In this document: positions 14,462 to 49,206 of the stretch, one piece after another
How the letters are laid out: each line of letters opens with the position of its first letter
How positions within the stretch are numbered: position 1 is the stretch's first letter
Assembly: GCA_965153355.1 (NCBI GenBank)
Contig: OZ231126.1
Coordinates: 9,610,001 to 9,674,000 of the forward strand
DNA from: Flaccisagitta enflata
Lineage: Eukaryota
DNA: 64,000 bases
Reading direction: 5' to 3'
Made by a program: the position numbers and the translations under genes
Notes under the pieces: generated by a model
The model's input: the letters and a program-made list of their open reading frames with translations, nothing else
What the model was told of the DNA's origin: nothing
Databases searched by the model: none

Positions 14462-26000
<11,539 letters not shown>

Positions 26001-26354
26001 ACGAGGGCACACTAGAGGGATGCGTATAAGTCATGGGGAACATGAAATCATGATATCAACCATACAGAAGGATTCATGGCATTTAATGTAAAACTACTGA
26101 ATCATGCAGGTGGTAACATTCTTTTAACGATGGTTTTCAATGAATAGAATCAATTCTGGAATTTTCCATTCTGTATTTTGTTCCACTCCTTATAACATTC
26201 CATCTTCCCCATCACTGCAGTAAATACTTGTAGATTCATTATATGGCCCCTTGTTTTCTTACTTAAACTCAAATGAAACTGTAGCGCCACACTTATAATA
26301 GTTGCTATTATGTCTTTTATTCTAATATGAAAATGCCAGCAAGAGTTCTGTGCA

Positions 26355-31607: not shown

Positions 31608-33170
31608 CAACTACATAACTTCATACTACATACTTAACATACTACACACTTACTACATACTTACATACTACATACTTACATACTTACCTAATTACATACT
31701 TACATATTTACATACTTGCATACATACATACTAACATATTCACTACATACTTACATACATACTACATACTTACATACTTACATACTTACATACATACTTC
31801 ATACATACATACTTACATACATACATACATACTTACATACCTACATACTTATTACATACATACATACTTACATACATACTCACATACTTACATACTTGCC
31901 TACATACCTACTTACATACATACTTTCATACATGCCCACATCCATACTTACCTACATACTCCTACATACATTACATACTTACATACATACTCACATACCC
32001 ATGCCACACATACCCATATGTTCCCACATACCCCATACTTACATACTTACCTACATACTACATACTTACATACTTACATGCCTACTTACATCTTACATAC
32101 ATACCATGTAATACTTACATACTCACCCATACTCACATGCTTACATACATACTTACATACCCATACTTACATACTTACATGCCTACATACATACTTACCA
32201 CATACTTACATACATACTACATACTTACATACTTCCATCCTACTTACATACTTACATACATACCCACCTACATGCCCACATACTTACACGCACATACTTA
32301 CATATTTACATACATACTTACCTACATACTTACATACTTACATACTTACATACACATACTTACATACATACCCACACATGTATACTTACCTACATACATA
32401 TACATACTCACATACTTACATGCTACTGCCACATATACATACCACATGCCACATACTTACATGCCACATACCCACATACACCTACATACTCATGTACATA
32501 CAACTTACATACTTACTTACATACTTACTTACATACTTACTTACATACTTACATACTTACATACTCACATACCTACATACTTACATACTTACTTACATAC
32601 TTACATACTTACATACTTACCTACATACTCACATACTCACATACTCACATACTTACAAACTTACATACTTACATACATACTTACATACTTACATACTTAC
32701 ATACTTACATACTTACATACATACTTACATACTTACATACTTACATACTTACATACTTACATACTTACATACTTACATATTTACATACTTACATACTTAC
32801 ATACTTACATACTTACATACTTACATACTTACCTACATACTCACATGCTTACCTACATACTTATATACTTACATACTTACATGCTGCCATACTTACACAC
32901 CTACATACTCATACTACCTACTCACATACTTACATACTTACATACTTACATACTTACATACTTACGTACTTACATACTTACGTACTTACATACTTACTTA
33001 CATACTTACATACTTACCTACATACTCACATACTTACATACTTACGTACTTACATACTTGCATACATACTTACTTACATACTTACATACTTACCTACATA
33101 CTCACATACTTACATACTATCTCTGAAAGTTACATACTACAACCTTATACTACATAACTTCATACTACAA
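31608..33170. repeat. (ACATACTT)n / (ACAT)n satellite, about 1.55 kb
   Basis: Degenerate 4- and 8-bp tandem array, most homogeneous at about 32500-33110. Confidence 0.95.
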
Positions 33171-33720
33171 CTTCATACTTCATAACGTCTGTCCCAAAAA
33201 AAGTTAGATTCTGAACCAATAACGAGTGTCCAATAAAAAGTTGACAAAATACCCAAAATTCTCAAAAATACCCAAAAAGTTAACAAAATACCCAAAATAC
33301 CCAAAATACCTAAGTTTTCCCAAAAATACCCAAAAATACCCAAAGGTTCCCCAAAATTCCCCAAAATACCCAAAAATAATCAAAAATACCCACAAGAACC
33401 CAAAAATATCTTAAAATATCCTAAAGTACCTTAAGTACTTAGAATAACTTGAGTACCTTAAAGTACCCTGAAGTACCCTAAAGTCCCCTGAAATACCCTA
33501 GAGTACCTTAAATTACCTTAAAATACCTTAAAAAGTCATAATTTTAACAATGTGACGGACCGACGGACGGACGGACGGACGGACAGACCGACCTACCGAC
33601 CGACACGGCAAGGTGTAGAGTCGCGTGCACGCGACTAAAAATGACAATGAGGCAAAGGAATAAACAAAAGTCTCCCCGGTTTCTTAAGGACCTCAAAATC
33701 ACAAACAATAAAAATATCCA

Positions 33721-38000: not shown

Positions 38001-39128
38001 CTGCCCACCCGCACACAACTGGAGTAGCGATGTATCCGGCCTTGTTTGTTTCAGAAATGATTTGGTTTGAGTGAAGACATGGTCAATTTGAGTTTCGCAA
38101 TTGCTATGTAACAAGTGACGCGGGTTCACAATATCGTTGCAGATGGGTAAGCAGGGGCATCCAACCCTCATTCTCACTCCAAACCCAACTCCATAAACAA
38201 ACATGCTCAAAAAGTATCCAGAATGCTCACTTTTTTACTTTTCAACCTAGGGGTGTATAAAATTGAGTCGCTTTTGATTCCCCTCCCCCTTTGATTTTCT
38301 TCCCCGTGAAGCATCGCATCATTTTTCAAAGTCTATAATTTTCTTCCCCATACGGCAGTGAAACAGTGTAGTTAAGGTTTGAATATTGGTAAATTGTGTT
38401 TTGATAATCAGTATTTATGATTTAGTACTGCCACAAGTTATATTTTCCCCCAATTTTCTTTTTTTCTCTTTTTCCTTCCCCATCTCCAAACTTACCAGAG
38501 GGGGGGGACTCAATTATATGCAGGTCTGTAGTTTGACTCGATCACCTCTACGGACCAATGAACAGACATACCCAAGGATAGACAAACGGACAAAGCCTCT
38601 TATAGAGATGCATGTCGGCAACTAAAGACTGAAACATTTTAGGGGCAATATAGTGCTTCTCTTTGCACTCTTTCTCTTCTAAACCGTATGAGATACAGAC
38701 CAAGGATTGATCTAGATTGAAAGATTTTAAAAAAATCTTTTAAATTGTCTCTTGTAAAAAAAAAGTTATCTTCTATATCCGTTATCAATTAAATGGGTGT
38801 CTTTTATTTGCCAAGTGATACATAAAGGATAGTTGTGGGCAATCCGGAGTAAACACCATTGAAAGCTTGCAAGGCTTTCATCCTTTGTAAATTGGAGAAT
38901 TCTGGCCTTCTTTTGTAAGGGCAATGTTGTTTCAACTTTCATAAAGATGCGTCAAGTTTTCAATATGACAAGAGAAATACGGACAAACTGAAAAACAAAC
39001 CGCTCTTTCCCAGATAAAGCAGTCAAAGCAGCCTCATAAAACATGTTTTTCTCATTCATTACAGTAAAAGATCTCGCCGTGGCCGAAGAATGATGCGAGA
39101 GACACAATTTGTGTGTGTGTGTGTTTGT

Positions 39129-39181
<53 letters not shown>

Positions 39182-39194
39182 TGTGTCTGTGTCT

Positions 39195-39246
<52 letters not shown>

Positions 39247-39479
39247 ATGTGTGTGTGTGTGTGTGTTTGATAAATGAATTTGGAAATTGACAAATAATAA
39301 TCGATTTATTTTGTTGGTCTTTTTTTTCTTTTTTTTTTTTTTTTGTCGGAAAAAATTTGTGGATATGATTATCAACTCTGCCCTGAAATACGTAGTTGTT
39401 GGCGAGTTGGTGTAAATTCCAAAAGGCAATCGTCTAAATAGTGCGAAAAAGCCCACGATGAGATGGTAGTCCCGGTTGG

Positions 39480-40380
39480 AGTGGGGGAAGTTGAGGTAGA
39501 GGAAGTGGGGGGCGGAAGTTGCGGAAGCAGGAGTTGGGGGTGGCTAAAGCGGAGGTAGCGGGAGTTGCGGGATTTGGAGGAGCGGGAGTGGAAGATACCG
39601 GAGCAGGAATTTCTGGAGTAGGAGGAGCGGGAGCGGGAGGAGCGGGAAGTACCAGAGCAAGAGGAGCAGGAGGAGCGGGAGTTGCGGGAGCGGGAGTTGC
39701 GGGAGCGGGAGTTGCTGGAGCGGGAGTTGCTGGAGTGGGTGCGGGAGGAGCGGTAGCGGGAGGAGCGGGAGAGGGAGGAGTAGGAGTAGGAGTTGCAGGA
39801 GCGGGAGGAGCGGGAGCGGGAGGAGCAGAAAGTGAAGGAGCTAGAGGAGGAGCAGGAGCCTGAGTTGCGGGAGCGGGAGTTGCGGGAGCGGGAGTTGCTG
39901 GAGTGGGTGCGGGAGGAGCGGGAGCGGGAGGAGCGGGAGAGGGAGGAGTAGGAGTAGGAGTTGCAGGACCGGGAGCGGGAGGAGCAGAAGGTAAAGGAGC
40001 TAGAGGAGGAGCAGGAGCGGGAGTTGCGGGTGCGGGAGGAGCAGGAGCAGGAGTTGCGGGAGCGGGAGATACTGGAGCAGGAGGAGCGGGAGCGGGAGGA
40101 GCGGGAGATACTGGAGCAGGAAGAACGGGAGCGGGAGTTACGGAAGCGGGAGTTGCGACTGCGGGAGTTGCGAGTGCATGAGGGGCGGGAGCGGGGGCAG
40201 GAGCGGAGGCGGGCATTGCAGGAGCCGGAGTTGATGAAGCGGGAGTTGCTGGAGCGAGAGCTACTGAAACGAGAGCTGCAGGAGCAGGAGCAGCGGGAGA
40301 GGAATTAGTGGGAGCAGCAGTAAGGGAATAAGCTAAGCAGGAGCCGCGGGAGAGGAACTAGCGGGAGCTGGAGTAGTGCT
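39480..40380. repeat. G-rich low-complexity tandem repeat (GGAGCGGGA/GTTGCGGGA units)
   Basis: Short degenerate units with one larger internal duplication; similar units occur in reverse orientation at about 35890-36215. Confidence 0.85.
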
Positions 40381-41702
40381 GAAGCAGATAAAAGGTTCTT
40401 GGCTGGATTTGGGCTGGATTTGGGCTGGCCACAGGCTGTCCATACCTTGAAAATTTAGCTTGATCATTCCTACCCATAGGAATATTTCTTACTGCAGAAA
40501 TTTTATAAATCAAAAATATTCTTACCACTAAAAATATCATGGTCTGTTAAAATTACCTGACCACAGAATCATATCTTGCTTGAGGTGATATATTTGATCA
40601 GGCGGAAGTGTGCATTTAAGGACGTCATCAGCAATAATTATACAGATTTACTCATCGTTGGGCCATCTTGCACATTAAAATGAACAAACCCGGTCTTGTT
40701 TAGAATTTCAGAGCCATACTTGGTCTCATGTAAAATTTTTTTTTCATTTGACCCAATATTCTTAGACCTAAAATTGGTTAAAAAAGGCGTGATTTTTGCG
40801 TGATGTGGACAATTTGTCAAAAATTTCCCATTTTCACCAGAAATTATATTTTTCTATGGTTCTGGTCTTTTGCCCTGAGAGTCCTAATAATAATTGCCGC
40901 AAAAACGATACCAACAGGTCGAATAAAATAATGGAAACATCTTTTCATTCAATCGCTTACAAGTCTGCTTTTTTTGCCCTTTTTTCTTCCCACCGTAAAA
41001 AACGCTCATTTGAACCCCAAAAAGCTACACCGTCATGGCAGATTGACCCCATTTCATGTTTCAAAACACACTAGTCAAAAGTATCAAAGAAATTGGGGTG
41101 ATACGATGTTATGAAGTGTGACCAAAGTCGTAAGAAGCAAGAGGAAGAGTTTCTGGTTTTAAGACGTTTAATTGTCCCAACCTCTGTCCCACCCACTTGC
41201 TCGACCTAAGCTTTTAAAAATGTATGCCCAATTAAGCTTCAATTGTTTTCCTGCGATCTTTAGTGGTTCCTACACTATGATAAACAATATCGTCCTTGAA
41301 ACTTAATTAAATCAGCGGAAAATAAGGAAAACTAGAATTTACAGTGTTTCTGGTTTTAAGACGCCAGCCAGAAATTCCAGACAGAAAAAAAAATGTTAAA
41401 TTTCTGTAAAAAAAAGTTGTTTTGACACAATGTTATTTAGACGTTTCAGACAATTTGGAATCGAAAGAGCTATACATTTTTGATCATTTTTTTTACACCC
41501 TTACCACCCCACCCTACCGAGTTCAACCTGGGACTCTAAAATTTTTTGCCAGTTTACGAAAAAAATGGATTTTTTGGAAATTTCATATCTGGACGTTTCA
41601 GAAAATTTGCAACAATATGAGCCTATCTTAATTTTTGGCAAAAAAATTGCCCCCAGGGGTTCTTACCCCTGCCCCTGCCCACCCCCAGCCCATTAAGGGG
41701 TG

Positions 41703-42192
41703 TGTGAATTTACGGCATAGTTTCTTGCCGTCGGTTCACGCTTTTAACGATTCACATGTCTATTTAGCTGAGCGTGAACATGTCCTTATTTTGTCTAATT
41801 TGCATATTGAGGTGTGGATGAAATGTAAAGCCCGTTGTAATTCTACATAGCCGCCGATATGTCTATTTTTGTGGAGTAAAATCTATTAACGGACAGTTTG
41901 CCACCACACCTCTCAAAAAAGACTCTAAATGGAACAAAAAAAGGGAAAAAATTAGTACACAAATCGAGATAAAACGAGACTAAAACGATAAAACGAGACT
42001 AAAACGATAAAATGACGCGATAACGATAAAAATGCAAGGCAAAAAAGATAAAAAACGCGCACACGTCCCCAGCAGCAAAATGCGATAAAAATTAAAAAAT
42101 CTCAAGCAACTCTATAAATCTACAGAGGCGACAAAAGAGCAATGCCACAAAAAATGGAATCGTTGAAGCCAACAAAAAACACATTTTTCACA
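41703..42192 (-). repeat. 3' LTR (490 bp)
   Basis: Direct repeat of 46795-47283 with TG...CA ends. Confidence 0.95.
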
Positions 42193-44484
42193 TTCCCCCT
42201 GGGTTTTTTTTATTTAAAAAAACAAATTCCTAAAAAGTTTCGAGAGGGGGGGGCAAAATCTAAGGGTAACATAAAAAGATACAAAGGGGGGGGGGATCGG
42301 ATAAGGATGGGGACACATAAACGAACACAGCACACACCACCCATGCACTCCCCCCCTGGGGACGAAGGGTGCTACTGCTCCGCAGCTGGCTCAATGTACA
42401 AACACCCCCTTCCCGTCCCCTTACCCGACCATGCTACCCAAAGGACAAAATCGGCGACAAAACTACAGCTAATTCAAGTGGCAAATTCAAATAACAATTC
42501 AGATAATATATTAATGAAACGCACCCCTACCCCCATCAAGACCCACCACCCACCGTCTACAGGGCCGGCACCCGATCACCGACCAAGGTGGCGCCGCTGC
42601 CTTAGGCACAGTTCCAGCTTATGTCATTATCAACGTTACCATCGACGATGAACCAACAGCTTCACGGCGGCCTTGGGGCCTTGCTGCGCAACTACCAGGA
42701 CAGTGAAAGAAAAAAGACAGGAACCAACCCTCACCCTTAGTGGACAGACCCAAGGGATATAACCAACGACTAACGACCAAAGAAGGCCTGAAACATACCC
42801 ACTAAAGGCACCATCCACGGGGAAAAATATGGAAACCTGCCCTAGGGGCCCGCCCAACAAGACAGGAAGGGGAGGGACTCAATAAAGGGGCAATTCAACG
42901 CAGACCTCCCTCTATCTCTCCCTTGAAAATCTCCCCCCCCACTCAACAATATGTAACTACCCCAACCACGCCGCTGTCCGGGAGTATAATCACTCGCGAA
43001 TGGATGAGGCTTCTTTTGTTGAGTTATGGGGATCATCGAAGACAAGGGCCGCCGCCAAATTGTCCATTGACTTAAACGCCCGCACGAAAGAGTCAATTTC
43101 ACCCTGGCTGCCAAGACGAGACACGAGAGAGTCGGCGTTGAGGCGCATTTACCTAGGTAAAAATGGGTGTGGGATAGGGAAGGGGGGTTTGGGGCCTTGT
43201 GGTATTTCCAGACACGGGAAAATGGCCAGAAATACATAAGGGATTAGAATATGGCAATGACAGGAAATACTACACCTAAAATAAATAATTAAGATCAAAA
43301 CAAACGTGCAGATGACACGTTAATAAACAGTCACGAAGATAAAAACGCAAACGAAAACGATAACTGCACAATAAAAACGCGAAGCGCAAAACGACAACGA
43401 AAATCAATAAAAACGACCGATCAATAACAAAATTAACACACATGAGATAACCCCCCCAAAAACGCAAGGCGCAAAACAAAAAAGAGAACAGAAACGGAAG
43501 GAAAGAGAAACCAAAAGAAACAAAAGAGAAGCGAGAGAGACCGAGAGAGAGAACGAGAGAGAGAGAAAGAAAAAGAAGGGAGAAAGAGAAAAACAAAGAA
43601 AGGGAAAAAGAGAAAGAAAACAAAACAAAGAACCGGGAGAGGGACAAGAAATGGAAAGTACATGCATCCCTCCCCATCGTGATAAAACAAAAACGAAACA
43701 CAAACAAAACAAAAATTATGCAAATCCCCCAGTCCCCATCACCTAACGACGACGAAGGAAGAGGCGCGGAAATCGAAGTTCGGAAAATCTTTTTCTCATC
43801 CTCTTCTTTACCCCCATCGAACGTTGAGAGACGTAGCCAGTGGAGGAGGAGGAGGAGAAGACGGAGGAAGGGAGAATGATCGGCGCCATCTTGAAACGAG
43901 CCGAGAGGAAAAGCGCCGCCGTCTTTCTTCCCCCATCGAACGTCGAGAGACGTAGCCAGTGGAGGAGGAGGAGGAGGAGAAGACGGAGGAAGGGAGATAG
44001 ATCGGCGCCATCTTGGAAACGAATCGAGACGACGAGCGCCGCCATCTTTCTTCCTGCGTGGGCCGGAAGTGATCACGCCCGCGCTCAAGCAATTGATAAA
44101 AACGTCCGGAAGCTACTGTAGGGTGAATATAAAGAAAACACACAAACAGAGGACGAAAAAACGTTATCAAAACACAAAACAGATAAGGGGCGGGAAAAGA
44201 AAGGGATATGCATTGAAGCGAATTGACACAGTATAATCATAGTCAAGCAATCATCAATGCCAATCACTCTTTCAATTAAACTTATCCGTTTTAGAAGTGT
44301 TGATATGGAATTCCATCGCATTCCATCGCCAAATCCAGCTGTCTAGGGCTACTCCACCGGACAAATGAAGGACCACCTAGCGGCTGGGGACGCGTCTGTT
44401 CGCAATCACGCGACTTGAAGGACATGGAGGGCGCATGAGCGGAAATGAGGCAAAGAAGAGGATAGAATGGATGGTAGGAGTGAA

Positions 44485-46356
44485 TCATTGATTAAAATTA
44501 CGGCCGTGGAGGATTGTTGCATGGACTCGGCCGCACATTTGACACGTAGGTTTGTTGTTGCAGTTTTTGGCAGTGTGTCCCTTCTCTAGGCAATGGTAAC
44601 AAAGTTCGCGCTTTGATAAAATGTCCACCCTTGAATCGACAGAGACGTCCATTAAAATGGGGCATTGAAACGTCGCATGGGGATGGCTACAAATCTCGCA
44701 GAGTCCATTTGGCTGATGTTGATCGTGTTTGGTGGAATCTTCTTCGGGCGGCGCCTGATATCTTTTGATAATTGCCCATCGTGACACCAACTCTACCAAA
44801 TTATGGTAGTTATAATCTCCCCAGCCATCTTGTTTTGATTCAAAGTCCTCCGTCCAAAATTTGTCAGCGAGATGAGGGATCCGGTTGTTGAGAATGTCAC
44901 GAATTCTGTTTTCTCTATGACACATCTCTTCCTCTCCACACACCCTCGCAATCTTCTCAGCCTTCAACAATTCCGCATATAGGAGAAAATGGGCCTTGTA
45001 ATCATGTGTTGCGATTGGAGGAGCGGATGCGATTCCATCAAGCAGGGCGCCCACCATGCTTAACTCCCCTTGGAATATCATATCCATCCGTTCAAAACAC
45101 TTCTCCAACTCAACGGCGGCAGTCTCTGCTGTCACACCGATCGTCGCCGTCATGATGACATCAGCTACAGGGCCACTAAACCAATGTGGTAACTCCAAGA
45201 GCATGTCCATTTCCGTAATTCCCTTATTATTTGCCGCCTCCAAAAATCTCCGTTTCAGAATAATGTAATCTGTGGGCGTCAATGATGTATGCGGTGTTCT
45301 AGGCCGTGCCTTTTCCAAATTCTTGTAGCCAATTTCTCTCCATCGAATGAAATTATCCGCATGGGAGGCTGCAAGGAATTTCTCAAAAGCGCCATCTGAC
45401 AAGGATTGATGGGCTAAGCCCTGTCGAGCTGCTTGAGCACCCGTTTGACGCCGCGTTAAAGGAGATGGAGGAGGAGGAGGAGGAGAAGGATTGAGATGAT
45501 GGCGATGGATTTGTGTCATCTGAGGTTCGCGGTAATCTGTGTCTGTCGGGCGTTCCTGGGGTGGTTGCTGATGTCGATGACCACCGCCGACTCCTTCCGA
45601 CTGCTCATGATCTCCATTCACCTGCCTGACAATCTCACCATCACCATTCGCAGCTCTAGCTATCCAATCACCTTTGACCTGACATCGCTGTTGATGATGT
45701 TGTTGACGAGCCTGTTGAGACGCTGGTGGTTGCTGATGGCGCTGCTGGAGCTGCTCGTGTACCGGCTCCTGCGTCGTTCCATCCATGGAGGAATGCTGCG
45801 TTGGCCTAACATCCCGCTGCTCTAATGCGCCACCTAATCCACCTCGATTCAGGGCATTCAAATTCATGCGCTGCGATGTCTTGTCAACCGCTTCCGCACC
45901 CACCCCCAGCTTATGAGGGGCACGTTGGCGATATTTAAGGATCTCCTCCGTTGTCGGGAAATTGTCGGAATACAAGTCTGTTGCGAAAAATTTCATCTTA
46001 GCCCATTTGTTGCGCACAGTTTTCAGGCTATTTGCAGAGTAAGTCCACAAGTCATATGCACCATCAAGCTCGCCCGATTTCGAAATGTCGTTGGTTTTAG
46101 CGAGGTAGCGATATACAATTGCTTGAAGACTATCACGCGCAAAGTCTGAATCTGCGGCCGCCATTTCGTCGTCTGGGTTGGTTACCACGTCGTTAAAGGC
46201 CATTTGAGCCTCGTTGAGGGCAACCACCACATTTGCACGCATCTCACGCAGCTCGACGATGAGTTCATGCTGGCAACCCGCAAAATATGATGCCAAGGAT
46301 GAAATTGAGGTGTCATGCACACCTCCGCCATCCATCGTTGCCGATGGAGCAGACAT
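44485..46356 (-). CDS. gag: BEL/Pao-type Gag (about 623 aa from the first ATG)
   Basis: Triple zinc knuckle CEICSHPHATFQC / CYHCLEKGHTAKNC / CQMCGRVHATILH characteristic of BEL/Pao Gag; central region resembles DUF1759. The ORF stops 6 codons after the last knuckle; no protease, RT or integrase motifs seen downstream. Confidence 0.88.
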   Translation of the reverse strand: MSAPSATMDGGGVHDTSISSLASYFAGCQHELIVELREMRANVVVALNEAQMAFNDVVTNPDDEMAAADSDFARDSLQAIVYRYLAKTNDISKSGELDGAYDLWTYSANSLKTVRNKWAKMKFFATDLYSDNFPTTEEILKYRQRAPHKLGVGAEAVDKTSQRMNLNALNRGGLGGALEQRDVRPTQHSSMDGTTQEPVHEQLQQRHQQPPASQQARQQHHQQRCQVKGDWIARAANGDGEIVRQVNGDHEQSEGVGGGHRHQQPPQERPTDTDYREPQMTQIHRHHLNPSPPPPPPSPLTRRQTGAQAARQGLAHQSLSDGAFEKFLAASHADNFIRWREIGYKNLEKARPRTPHTSLTPTDYIILKRRFLEAANNKGITEMDMLLELPHWFSGPVADVIMTATIGVTAETAAVELEKCFERMDMIFQGELSMVGALLDGIASAPPIATHDYKAHFLLYAELLKAEKIARVCGEEEMCHRENRIRDILNNRIPHLADKFWTEDFESKQDGWGDYNYHNLVELVSRWAIIKRYQAPPEEDSTKHDQHQPNGLCEICSHPHATFQCPILMDVSVDSRVDILSKRELCYHCLEKGHTAKNCNNKPTCQMCGRVHATILHGRNFNQ

Positions 46357-46780
46357 TTTAGCGTCCAATGGAAACTGGCGCGATAACGTTTTTAGAGTCC
46401 ATTTTGCTTGGACGTAATCACTTGCTTAATTCACGTCGAAATTCAGAGTCAGTCAAGCATCACCCGACGGTTTTTAGCACGCAGAAAATGGACCAGGTTC
46501 GCTACCACCGACCATGTCAAAGTTCAGCGTCAGTTAAGCATCACCCGTCGGTATTTCGCGTGCAAGATCAGGGTCGCCACCACCGACGCCAATGCACGTG
46601 GGGAAAGGCGCAAATACATTTCGACGATAAAAGGACGATTCATCAGCAATTTATCAACGCGTGTTTCTCTCATTGACATCACGTCCCGGCGCCCCGGCGC
46701 CTGGGTCCGTCACTTAGCATGACAGCAGCCTTGGGTCAGGGCAGGAGACACGAATAGACGAGTGAAGACGGCGTCGATTT

Positions 46781-46794
46781 TTAATAGATTTTAC
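46781..46794 (-). promoter_or_regulatory. Putative self-priming primer-binding site GTAAAATCTATTAA
   Basis: Occupies the PBS position, does not begin with TGG, and is perfectly complementary to LTR positions 46968-46981. Confidence 0.65.
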
Positions 46795-47283
46795 TGTGAA
46801 TTTACGGCATAGTTTCTTGCCGTCGGTTCACGCTTTTAACGATTCACATGTCTATTTAGCTGAGCGTGAACATGTCCTTATTTTGTCTAATTTGCATATT
46901 GAGGTGTGGATGAAATGTAAAGCCCGTCGTAATTCTACATAGCCGCCGATATGTCTATTTTTGTGGAGTAAAATCTATTAACGGACAGTTTGCCACCACA
47001 CCTCTCAAAAAAGACTCTAAATGGAACAAAAAAGGGAAAAAATTAGTACACAAATCGAGATAAAACGAGACTAAAACGATAAAACGAGACTAAAACGATA
47101 AAATGACGCGATAACGATAAAAATGCAAGGCAAAAAAGATAAAAAACGCGCACACGTCCCCAGCAGCAAAATGCGATAAAAATTAAAAAATCTCAAGCAA
47201 CTCTATAAATCTACAGAGGCGACAAAAGAGCAATGCCACAAAAAATGGAATCGTTGAAGCCAACAAAAAACACATTTTTCACA
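46795..47283 (-). repeat. 5' LTR (489 bp)
   Basis: Direct repeat of 41703-42192, upstream of gag on the minus strand. Confidence 0.95.
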
Positions 47284-49206
47284 GGGTGCAAACCCGCAAA
47301 ATGCACAGCCAGTTAGTTGGACTACCTGCTCAAGCGAAAAAAATGAGATATTTTGTCGTTTGAAAATTGACTATTTTTTCTTTTTCACTTCCCCCTGATG
47401 AAATAAATCACCTTGAGCAATATACACAACTGTCACTTTGTTCACAGACTGTAAAATTTGTTAGTTAAACTGTATTCTCTTCTCAAGGACTGATCAAGCT
47501 GAGAAACACTGAACTGAGAACCCCGCAATAACGGAGGTCAAGAAACAGATTCTATTTGTTATATTGGATTTTCCGCTTTTGCCACCATAAGAAATAGAAA
47601 GAAATGACATGATGGAACGAATATTTCATGATCGTTTTATGCGGATTTCCATGACTAGTGCACGATACGTTACAGACTTAGAGTAGTGTGTAACCATAGA
47701 AGAATCTTCATTTGAATGACTTATTCCTATCTTAATAGACTGCTCCTTACATCTTTTTCTCAAAAGCGATCTGGAACACTAGCAAATATTGCAAGCGAAC
47801 TAAACTAGGTTACTGTTAGGCCTACATAGTCATTGAAAAAATAACTCACTTCAAATATGGAGTTTATTCTTCCATCATCAACAATACATGATTCAAAATT
47901 CTTTATCAGATCGGGAAGGTGAGAAACTAAATGATTTCATGGCATGAAAGGACTTATATTATGAATTATGGATATAGTCTTTTAATGTTTAGCATCATGC
48001 GTTTTTGCATTTTCTTTAGTAATGGTGCATAAAAAATCATCAGGGAATTGAATGACGAATCTGAGTGTGTATATAAACATCTTTAAATGATTGAAAACAC
48101 TCCCCAAATCGCGTCTCTGAGCCCATAATAAATACGTTCAGCTCCAATGTTTTATATCATGGGCTCCAGACAAAATTGTCAAGAATGTCAAGCACAAGCC
48201 GTGGATCTCCCCTCATTGATAATAACTAGGGTTATAAAATGCTGGCCAATTCCCTCATTTCAATTTTTGTTAGCTTTCACAAAATTTCAAATGTGTTGCA
48301 ATATTCTAACCCTTCTCCCATGAATATATATATCCATAACTATGTACACCAGTCATAATTAGCATGCACAATATGAAACTTGACATTTGCATCGATAAAC
48401 GCTGAAAAAATCGCGACAAAATTAGCTCAAAAAGATTTTTGATAGATCATCAAATATTTTTTAACTTCGTGGTTAATTCTCTGCGAGGTGTATTGCGAAT
48501 TGTCTTGAATTCACTATCAGAGACCTGCTCTGTAAAAAAATTGAGCTAGAGCAAAAAACCGCATTCAAATCGGTGGACGCTGACCGACGCTAGAGCCTCG
48601 CACGTGTTAAAAAAATTTATTCGGTAAAAAATCATCAAGGTTGTTGTCTTCGTTTAGGCGCCGCGAAGTTGCGGTTGTTATAAAGACGGATCAGAGGAAG
48701 ATTTTTTCTTCCTGCACCATTTTTATAGATAATTACCGATAATGTATATGTTTCAGCATATCAATCGAATCCTCTTTTCATGAAGAATATGAAAATGATG
48801 GTTCCTCGTTGACAATCCCACTCATAGAGGCCTCCAACCTCTCGTCAACTGCTTCCTCAACAACTCCAGCAACTGTCTGTAGACAAAAACCACCATCACG
48901 GAGAAACCACTTGACCAATCTTCATCAATCTTTGTAGGAACCTACCATCATTTTGCGGGTACACGCTGTATGCATCTATGACACACTCGAGCACCTGCAA
49001 TGGCTGGTCGACTGCTTCATCCATATCCATGCATCTGCAACTTTAAGCAGTCATAACTCAAAAAATACCTGGCCAAATTTTATAGAATTTTTCGTGCAGT
49101 TATATCTAGTTAGCGTCTACACTTTCGAAAAAATTTAGGGCCCTTGAACATCATATTCGCCAAGTTGGTCGTCAACAGCATCTACTGTAGGCGCTATCAG
49201 CTTTAC

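Follow-up and report, generated by a model that had tools for sequence, protein, structure and literature searches.

A BEL/Pao-type LTR retrotransposon with a primer site complementary to its own LTR: a candidate for Tf1-like self-priming

Introduction

The locus described here raises the question of how an LTR retrotransposon primes its reverse transcription when the site directly behind its 5' LTR offers nothing to the CCA end of a tRNA and is an exact complement of a stretch inside the LTR itself. The element lies on the minus strand of the window, by which the whole analysed stretch of 64,000 nucleotides is meant, and its gag relates it to the BEL/Pao superfamily. Members of this superfamily are generally described as tRNA-primed, in the original prediction as well as in the ICTV profile of the Belpaoviridae; according to the profile, the primer site of the family measures 18 nt and binds the 3' end of tRNA-Arg or tRNA-Gly, while replication is called poorly understood (PMC8742986). 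The paper of de la Chaux and Wagner (2011) makes no mention of a primer-binding site or a tRNA (PMC3118150).

Priming by the element's own RNA is known from elsewhere. It is established for Tf1 and Tf2 in the Tf1/sushi group and has been proposed for Tj1 (PMC5341516, PMC4600332). It has also been predicted, from sequence alone, for the plant Tcn1 clade of Ty3/gypsy and for the TAR lineage of Ty1/copia (PMC6317226), and these predictions imply that self-priming is not confined to one superfamily. The original prediction knew of no such case in BEL/Pao, and a literature search with most subscription journals outside its scope found no report of one either.

Structure of the element

The element has a total length of 5,581 bp and is the sole copy in the window, as established by a direct-repeat search and alignment. 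Its parts, in the order of the sense strand, are as follows.

47284-47288, minus strand: target-site duplication CACCC, upstream copy (the flank reads GCACCC directly before TGTG in the alignment)
46795-47283, minus strand: 5' LTR, 489 bp, with TGTG...CACA ends (direct-repeat search and alignment)
44485-46356, minus strand: intact gag open reading frame of 623 aa, with its ATG at 46356 and three C-terminal zinc knuckles
42201-44484, minus strand: internal region without pol, 2.3 kb, low-complexity, repeat-rich and non-coding (sequence reading and tblastn)
42193-42200, minus strand: polypurine tract AGGGGGAA, adjoining the 3' LTR (sequence reading)
41703-42192, minus strand: 3' LTR, 490 bp (direct-repeat search and alignment)
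41698-41702, minus strand: target-site duplication CACCC, downstream copy (TTCACA directly before CACCC in the alignment)

The two LTRs are 99.6 % identical in the alignment and differ only by one indel in a T-run and one substitution. With just these two differences, an intact target-site duplication and a polypurine tract, the copy transposed recently, and for this it needed some primer. The length of the LTRs, the length of the element and the polypurine tract before the 3' LTR all lie within the description of the Belpaoviridae, which gives LTRs of 0.2-1.2 kb, a genome of 4.2-10 kb and a polypurine tract in this position (PMC8742986).

Several smaller repeats are embedded in the element. 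The first part of the LTR sense strand contains a 19-bp tandem in which TCGTTTTAGTCTCGTTTTA occurs twice, the leader carries a tandem duplication of 75-81 bp (46432-46587), and the region behind gag has another of ~130 bp (43804-44054). Contigs of three sequencing runs (X1, X3 and X19) end loosely at 46464-46465, so that copies vary in the leader repeat. A variant of the junction between polypurine tract and LTR is seen where an RNA-run contig ends loosely at 47283.

The gag gene and superfamily assignment

Gag is the only gene of the element. A word-indexed protein search returned four clusters of relatives with 77-98 % identity and 34 members, all of them unnamed; those aligned at full length measure 610-655 aa and share the same stop position, relatives at 77-78 % represent sister subfamilies, and one homologue is encoded on a contig of 9,925 bp. 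A fused gag-pol relative was absent from the 1,287 longer candidates, which counts as weak evidence. Pfam reported nothing significant on gag itself, and when gag was scanned together with its 11 closer relatives DUF1759 was not found, the only matches being to zinc knuckles of three families, each in one of the 12 members.

The superfamily emerges from more distant relatives. An exhaustive HMMER search with gag gave 2,219 matches at E<=1e-3, seven of which were scanned with Pfam. All five long ones (1,226-2,170 aa) contain DUF1759 and Peptidase_A17, the Pao protease, and three of these polyproteins also contain DUF5641; the remaining two are gag-sized relatives in which Pfam recognised no family. 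When a profile of gag and the 11 relatives was compared by hhalign with the gag parts of the five polyproteins, the result reached a probability of 99.9 % with an E-value of 8e-32 over 260 columns, and the alignment spans the DUF1759-type region as well as the whole three-knuckle block. The BEL/Pao identity put forward in the original prediction is thus upheld by the homology of gag to the gag part of polyproteins that bear Peptidase_A17, and the sequence of its gag supports classing the element as a BEL/Pao derivative.

Pol was sought as Peptidase_A17, RT, RNase H and integrase and was not found in the element, the sequence behind gag being of low complexity. A tblastn search with the five BEL/Pao polyproteins gave no match in the window except at 44476-45276, inside gag. 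A copy without pol is non-autonomous, a point on which the original prediction laid no stress, and since it encodes neither RT nor RNase H its priming would have to rely on the enzymes of an autonomous partner, no example of which was seen. Taken with the abundance described below, the copy represents a recent insertion from a highly repeated BEL/Pao family, in which it is a non-autonomous member carrying gag alone.

A wide clade of gag-only proteins (P0025, P0029, P0031 and others) was also encountered. These are 600-930 aa long and 22-35 % identical to gag, and Pfam recognises no family in them; their N-terminal parts are long and variable, and coiled or of low complexity. The clade suggests that many stand-alone BEL/Pao-type gag genes exist across public assemblies.

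Complementarity between the primer site and the LTR

The pairing at the centre of this report involves three short segments.

46781-46794, minus strand: primer-binding-site position GTAAAATCTATTAA, directly 3' of the 5' LTR (15 bp when base 46795 is included)
46967-46981, minus strand: candidate self-primer TTAATAGATTTTAC(T) in the 5' LTR, at LTR positions 303-317 (duplex energy -14.4 kcal/mol)
41875-41889, minus strand: identical oligomer in the 3' LTR (alignment and script search)

Read along the minus strand, the 5' LTR ends with AAATTCACA (...TTCACA) at 46795 and is followed directly by GTAAAATCTATTAA from 46794 to 46781. The exact complement of these 14 nt, TTAATAGATTTTAC, lies at 46981 to 46968, and the pairing continues with T 46967 and the final LTR base, A 46795, to give 15 bp, beyond which it ends on both sides. 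In a script search of the window the plus-strand 14-mer occurs at 41876 and 46968 only, while the complement has no occurrence other than the primer-site position. No open reading frame covers both the primer site and the oligomer. The oligomer begins at position 303 of the 489 bp of the LTR and stands 173 nt before the LTR end, close to the distance of about 170 nt that had been predicted.

When the LTR was shuffled 20,000 times with its dinucleotides preserved, a complement of at least 14 nt that lay 0-3 nt from the LTR end arose three times; for offset 0 an analytic calculation gives an expectation of 1.8e-5. The complementarity that had been predicted is exact to the base and begins precisely where the LTR ends, and chance is an unlikely explanation for it. 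The further claim, that the site does not start with TGG and so could not pair with the CCA end of a tRNA, also stands: TGG is absent for 203 nt past the 5' LTR and first appears at 46591, which leaves no primer site for such an end. The 14-mer is rich in A+T (11 of 14 positions). Among the 40 substitutions listed out of 505 in the run contigs described below, none falls within 46781-46794 or 46967-46981, the nearest being at 46966, although this does not amount to proof of conservation.

Probable start of the transcript

If the oligomer is to act as a primer in the manner of Tf1, it should lie at or near the 5' end of the RNA. Two features of the LTR bear on the position of this end.

46991-46994, minus strand: change point in the base composition of the LTR, at LTR position 290-293 (likelihood gain 25.8, a gain reached by 0 of 300 shuffles)
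47015-47022, minus strand: weak TATA-like motif ATTTAGAG, 31 nt upstream of A 46991 (the motif call is a judgement)

Folding of RNAs with different starts gave a marked dependence on the 5' end. An RNA that begins at 46981 is predicted to form the 15-bp duplex in both the MFE and the centroid structure, with a z-score of -2.27 and three of 200 shuffles folding as well. Averaged over the 15 bp, the pair probability comes to 0.97 with a start at 46981, 0.71 with one at 46991 and 0.77 with one at 47000; with a start at 47020 or further upstream it is 0.000 and the duplex is missing from the MFE structure (z -0.77).

The composition of the LTR sense strand switches very sharply, from ~50 % T upstream of the change point to ~25 % T and 35-40 % A downstream of it, 10-13 nt before the oligomer, and this switch could possibly mark the border between U3 and R. 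The folding, the change point and the TATA-like motif agree with one another and would, indirectly, fit a transcript start near 46981-47000, the original prediction having placed it at about 46981; the oligomer would then coincide with the probable start of R or follow it by a few bases. Against such a start, neither TATAAA nor AATAAA is present in the LTR, and the sole initiator-like match to TCA[GT]T[CT] within it is TCATTT at 47106, 125 nt upstream of 46981.

RNA structure around the primer site

Two further segments are predicted to take part in structures close to the primer site.

46827-46871, minus strand: 9-bp hairpin GTTCACGCT...AGCGTGAAC in the putative U5 (MFE and centroid fold)
46745-46773, minus strand: leader directly past the primer site, with several short colinear complements to the putative R-U5

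In the fold that starts at 46981, a second small hairpin is predicted just before the LTR end. The duplex between the leader and R-U5 has a calculated energy of -27.9 kcal/mol, compared with -19.1 +/- 3.2 kcal/mol for the shuffled leader, and six of 500 shuffles are as good. Such complementarity, as modelled, resembles a U5-leader stem; in retroviruses, too, stems of this kind flank the primer site. Taken together, the predicted U5 hairpin and leader-U5 pairing, both predicted from a single sequence, would be compatible with, and are loosely like, the multi-duplex structure of Tf1. The latter needs a 'pretzel' of three duplexes, the central one of which is formed by the self-primer and the PBS (PMC10085805).

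Abundance and occurrence in RNA runs

Parts of the stretch are contained in 20 of the 24 rows listed from one organism's runs and from marine metagenomes, with 10 studies and four RNA rows represented. The number of contigs that match 44300-47340 at 80 % likeness is 1,580 in a DNA run (X1), 231 in X3, 64 in one RNA run (X17) and 21 in another (X19); all four runs were available as Logan contigs, from which the starts, ends, strand and level of RNAs are not readable. A table of positions at which many molecules begin or end was accordingly empty, and since contig depth is flat, depth along the LTR was left out of account. The family is highly repeated and diverse, and it is probably abundant in the DNA run of one organism as well as in marine plankton metagenomes and metatranscriptomes. 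Contigs 98-99 % like the present copy occur in RNA libraries, for example as records 13-15 of X17. Record 15 (depth 116) spans 46778-47068, followed by 29 unlike letters, and hence crosses 46981 and reaches at least 87 nt further upstream; it could stem from the U3 of 3' LTRs or from a start that lies further upstream.

Searches of other contig collections returned no relatives. An alignment of gag gave 197 pattern matches in metagenome contigs, 36 in viral contigs and 51 in genome contigs, none of them related, and a wider alignment of the gag clade gave 52 matches in viral contigs, again none related. A 20-mer comprising the LTR end and the primer site had 0 matches in viral contigs. In two metagenome contigs (L001:711-734 and L002:4840-4863) exactly 20 nt of the string of LTR end and primer site were found (24 nt at 96 %), and these loci were rejected as a chance match rather than the element, since only the 24 nt are shared, within an unrelated sequence that is identical in both.

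A model of self-priming and its alternatives

Tf1-like self-priming is probably the best explanation of the pairing between primer site and LTR. According to this model the genomic RNA would fold back so that its 5' portion pairs with the primer site, whereupon the RNase H of a partner element's RT would cut after the oligomer, at about 46968/46967. From the 3' end thus freed, minus-strand strong-stop DNA would be made across U5 and R, and synthesis would go on after the first strand transfer. By the general scheme of reverse transcription the RNA primer would later be copied into the plus strand, and the primer site would be rewritten in each cycle, which would explain the perfect match in a young copy. 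The autonomous partner on which the copy presumably depends would share the same priming system. On balance, if only by a little, it seems that an abundant BEL/Pao lineage, gag-only copies included, has exchanged tRNA priming for self-priming of the Tf1 type.

Other readings of the same pairing have to be considered. The pairing might be a structural or regulatory long-range stem of the RNA, serving the occlusion or presentation of the primer site, packaging or dimerisation, while the real primer is another molecule such as an internal tRNA fragment. The flanking complementarity around the primer site would suit such a stem, and half-molecule tRNA primers are known in Ty1/copia lineages (PMC6317226). 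However, a primer must pair exactly at the LTR end, and this site is taken, base for base, by the complement of the LTR; a separate primer identical to the LTR oligomer would amount to a second coincidence. A typical nuclear tRNA is unlike a 14-mer with 11 A+T positions, which also counts against a tRNA fragment. An Rfam search of the LTR yielded nothing tRNA-like and three chance-level matches only. In the 64-kb window as a whole nothing attained the Rfam gathering score, and a tRNA search found no tRNA to set against the site, so that a fragment of a nuclear or mitochondrial host tRNA is still conceivable as the primer. A stem with a different primer is unlikely, although it is the most credible of the alternatives.

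Somewhat less likely again is self-priming that does not proceed from the 5' end, with the oligomer situated in U3 or deep in R. It would then come from U3 in the 3' LTR, either of the RNA being copied or of another one packaged with it, or be cut out internally. Each genomic RNA does carry the oligomer a second time in its 3' LTR, the initiator-like TCATTT lies well upstream, and the RNA-run contig extends past 46981 by its 87 nt or more; but contigs of this kind cannot tell U3 of a 3' LTR from a 5' end, the predicted duplex is lost in the folds once upstream sequence is included, and the composition change point sits only just before the oligomer. The least likely reading is that the complementarity is accidental and that the copy was primed in a way unrelated to it. 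The case was selected out of a scan of very large size, in which a coincidence of the order of 1e-4, as implied by the three shuffles that attained 14 nt, is possible. Against this improbable reading stand the offset of 0 from the LTR end, the lack of any visible alternative primer site over the 203 nt without TGG, and the agreement between two independent indications of one and the same place, the folding and the composition boundary.

Relation to known priming systems

Compared with canonical Belpaoviridae (Semotivirus), the element is alike in the DUF1759-type region of its gag, its three knuckles, the sizes of its LTRs and of the whole, and its polypurine tract, but differs in having neither a TGG primer site nor pol. 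With Tf1, Tf2 and Tj1, which are Ty3/gypsy chromoviruses, it shares the absence of a tRNA-type primer site, a PBS complementary to its own LTR and, as far as the predicted structures go, further duplexes around that site. Unlike Tf1 and Tf2 it has a BEL/Pao gag and is without pol, and its duplex measures 14-15 bp, compared with the 11 bp of the Tf1 self-primer. The gag, being of BEL/Pao and not of Ty3/gypsy chromovirus type, speaks against descent from Tf1/sushi, so that the element may work like Tf1 while standing outside that group by descent. The Tcn1 and TAR elements differ from it in belonging to plants and to the other two superfamilies. In the Ty1/copia elements primed by half tRNAs (1/2 tRNA-Met and 1/2 tRNA-Ile) the primer site likewise does not begin with TGG, but it matches an internal segment of a tRNA, whereas the exact match here is in the element's own LTR (PMC6317226).

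Self-priming would be new for BEL/Pao; of the mechanism as such, Ty3/gypsy provides known cases and Ty1/copia predicted ones. A self-priming member of this superfamily would carry a mechanism that is proven only in Ty3/gypsy elements of fission yeast to a third superfamily and to animals. If the model is correct, self-priming would occur in all three superfamilies of LTR retrotransposons, either through repeated convergent invention or because an ancestral state of hairpin priming has resurfaced. Tools that annotate primer-binding sites by seeking tRNA matches alone would then miss whole lineages. Self-priming would also make an element independent of the identity of host tRNAs, which bears on the spread of such families, and the present family would offer a natural, abundant and expressed system with very many copies for comparing the primer with its binding site.

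Other features of the window

The window is very repeat-rich. A 654-aa open frame at 21667-23631 on the minus strand matches RVT_1 (E 1.6e-22) and, weakly, the endonuclease/exonuclease/phosphatase family; this is a fragment of a LINE-type non-LTR retrotransposon. A long tandem array with a unit of 21 bp occupies 49059-50710, its copies being 90-98 % alike and open in several frames. Further large tandem or low-complexity arrays are located at 57072-58669, 31619-33185, 39076-39295 and 39372-40357, with units listed as ~17-18 bp, 8-12 bp, (TG)n and 15 bp, and they are the source of spurious ORFs of great length in every frame.

Direct repeats of 250-350 bp with 85-88 % identity pair 5679-6028 with 15908-16257, 2321-2568 with 15367-15615, and 10939-11238 with 25711-26010; these dispersed sequences may belong to older repeat families or be LTRs of older elements. 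An inverted repeat of ~298 bp with 91 % identity is formed by 55909-56205 and 56287-56583, the arms of which are ~80 bp apart, and the whole (55909-56583) could be a hairpin-forming or MITE-like element.
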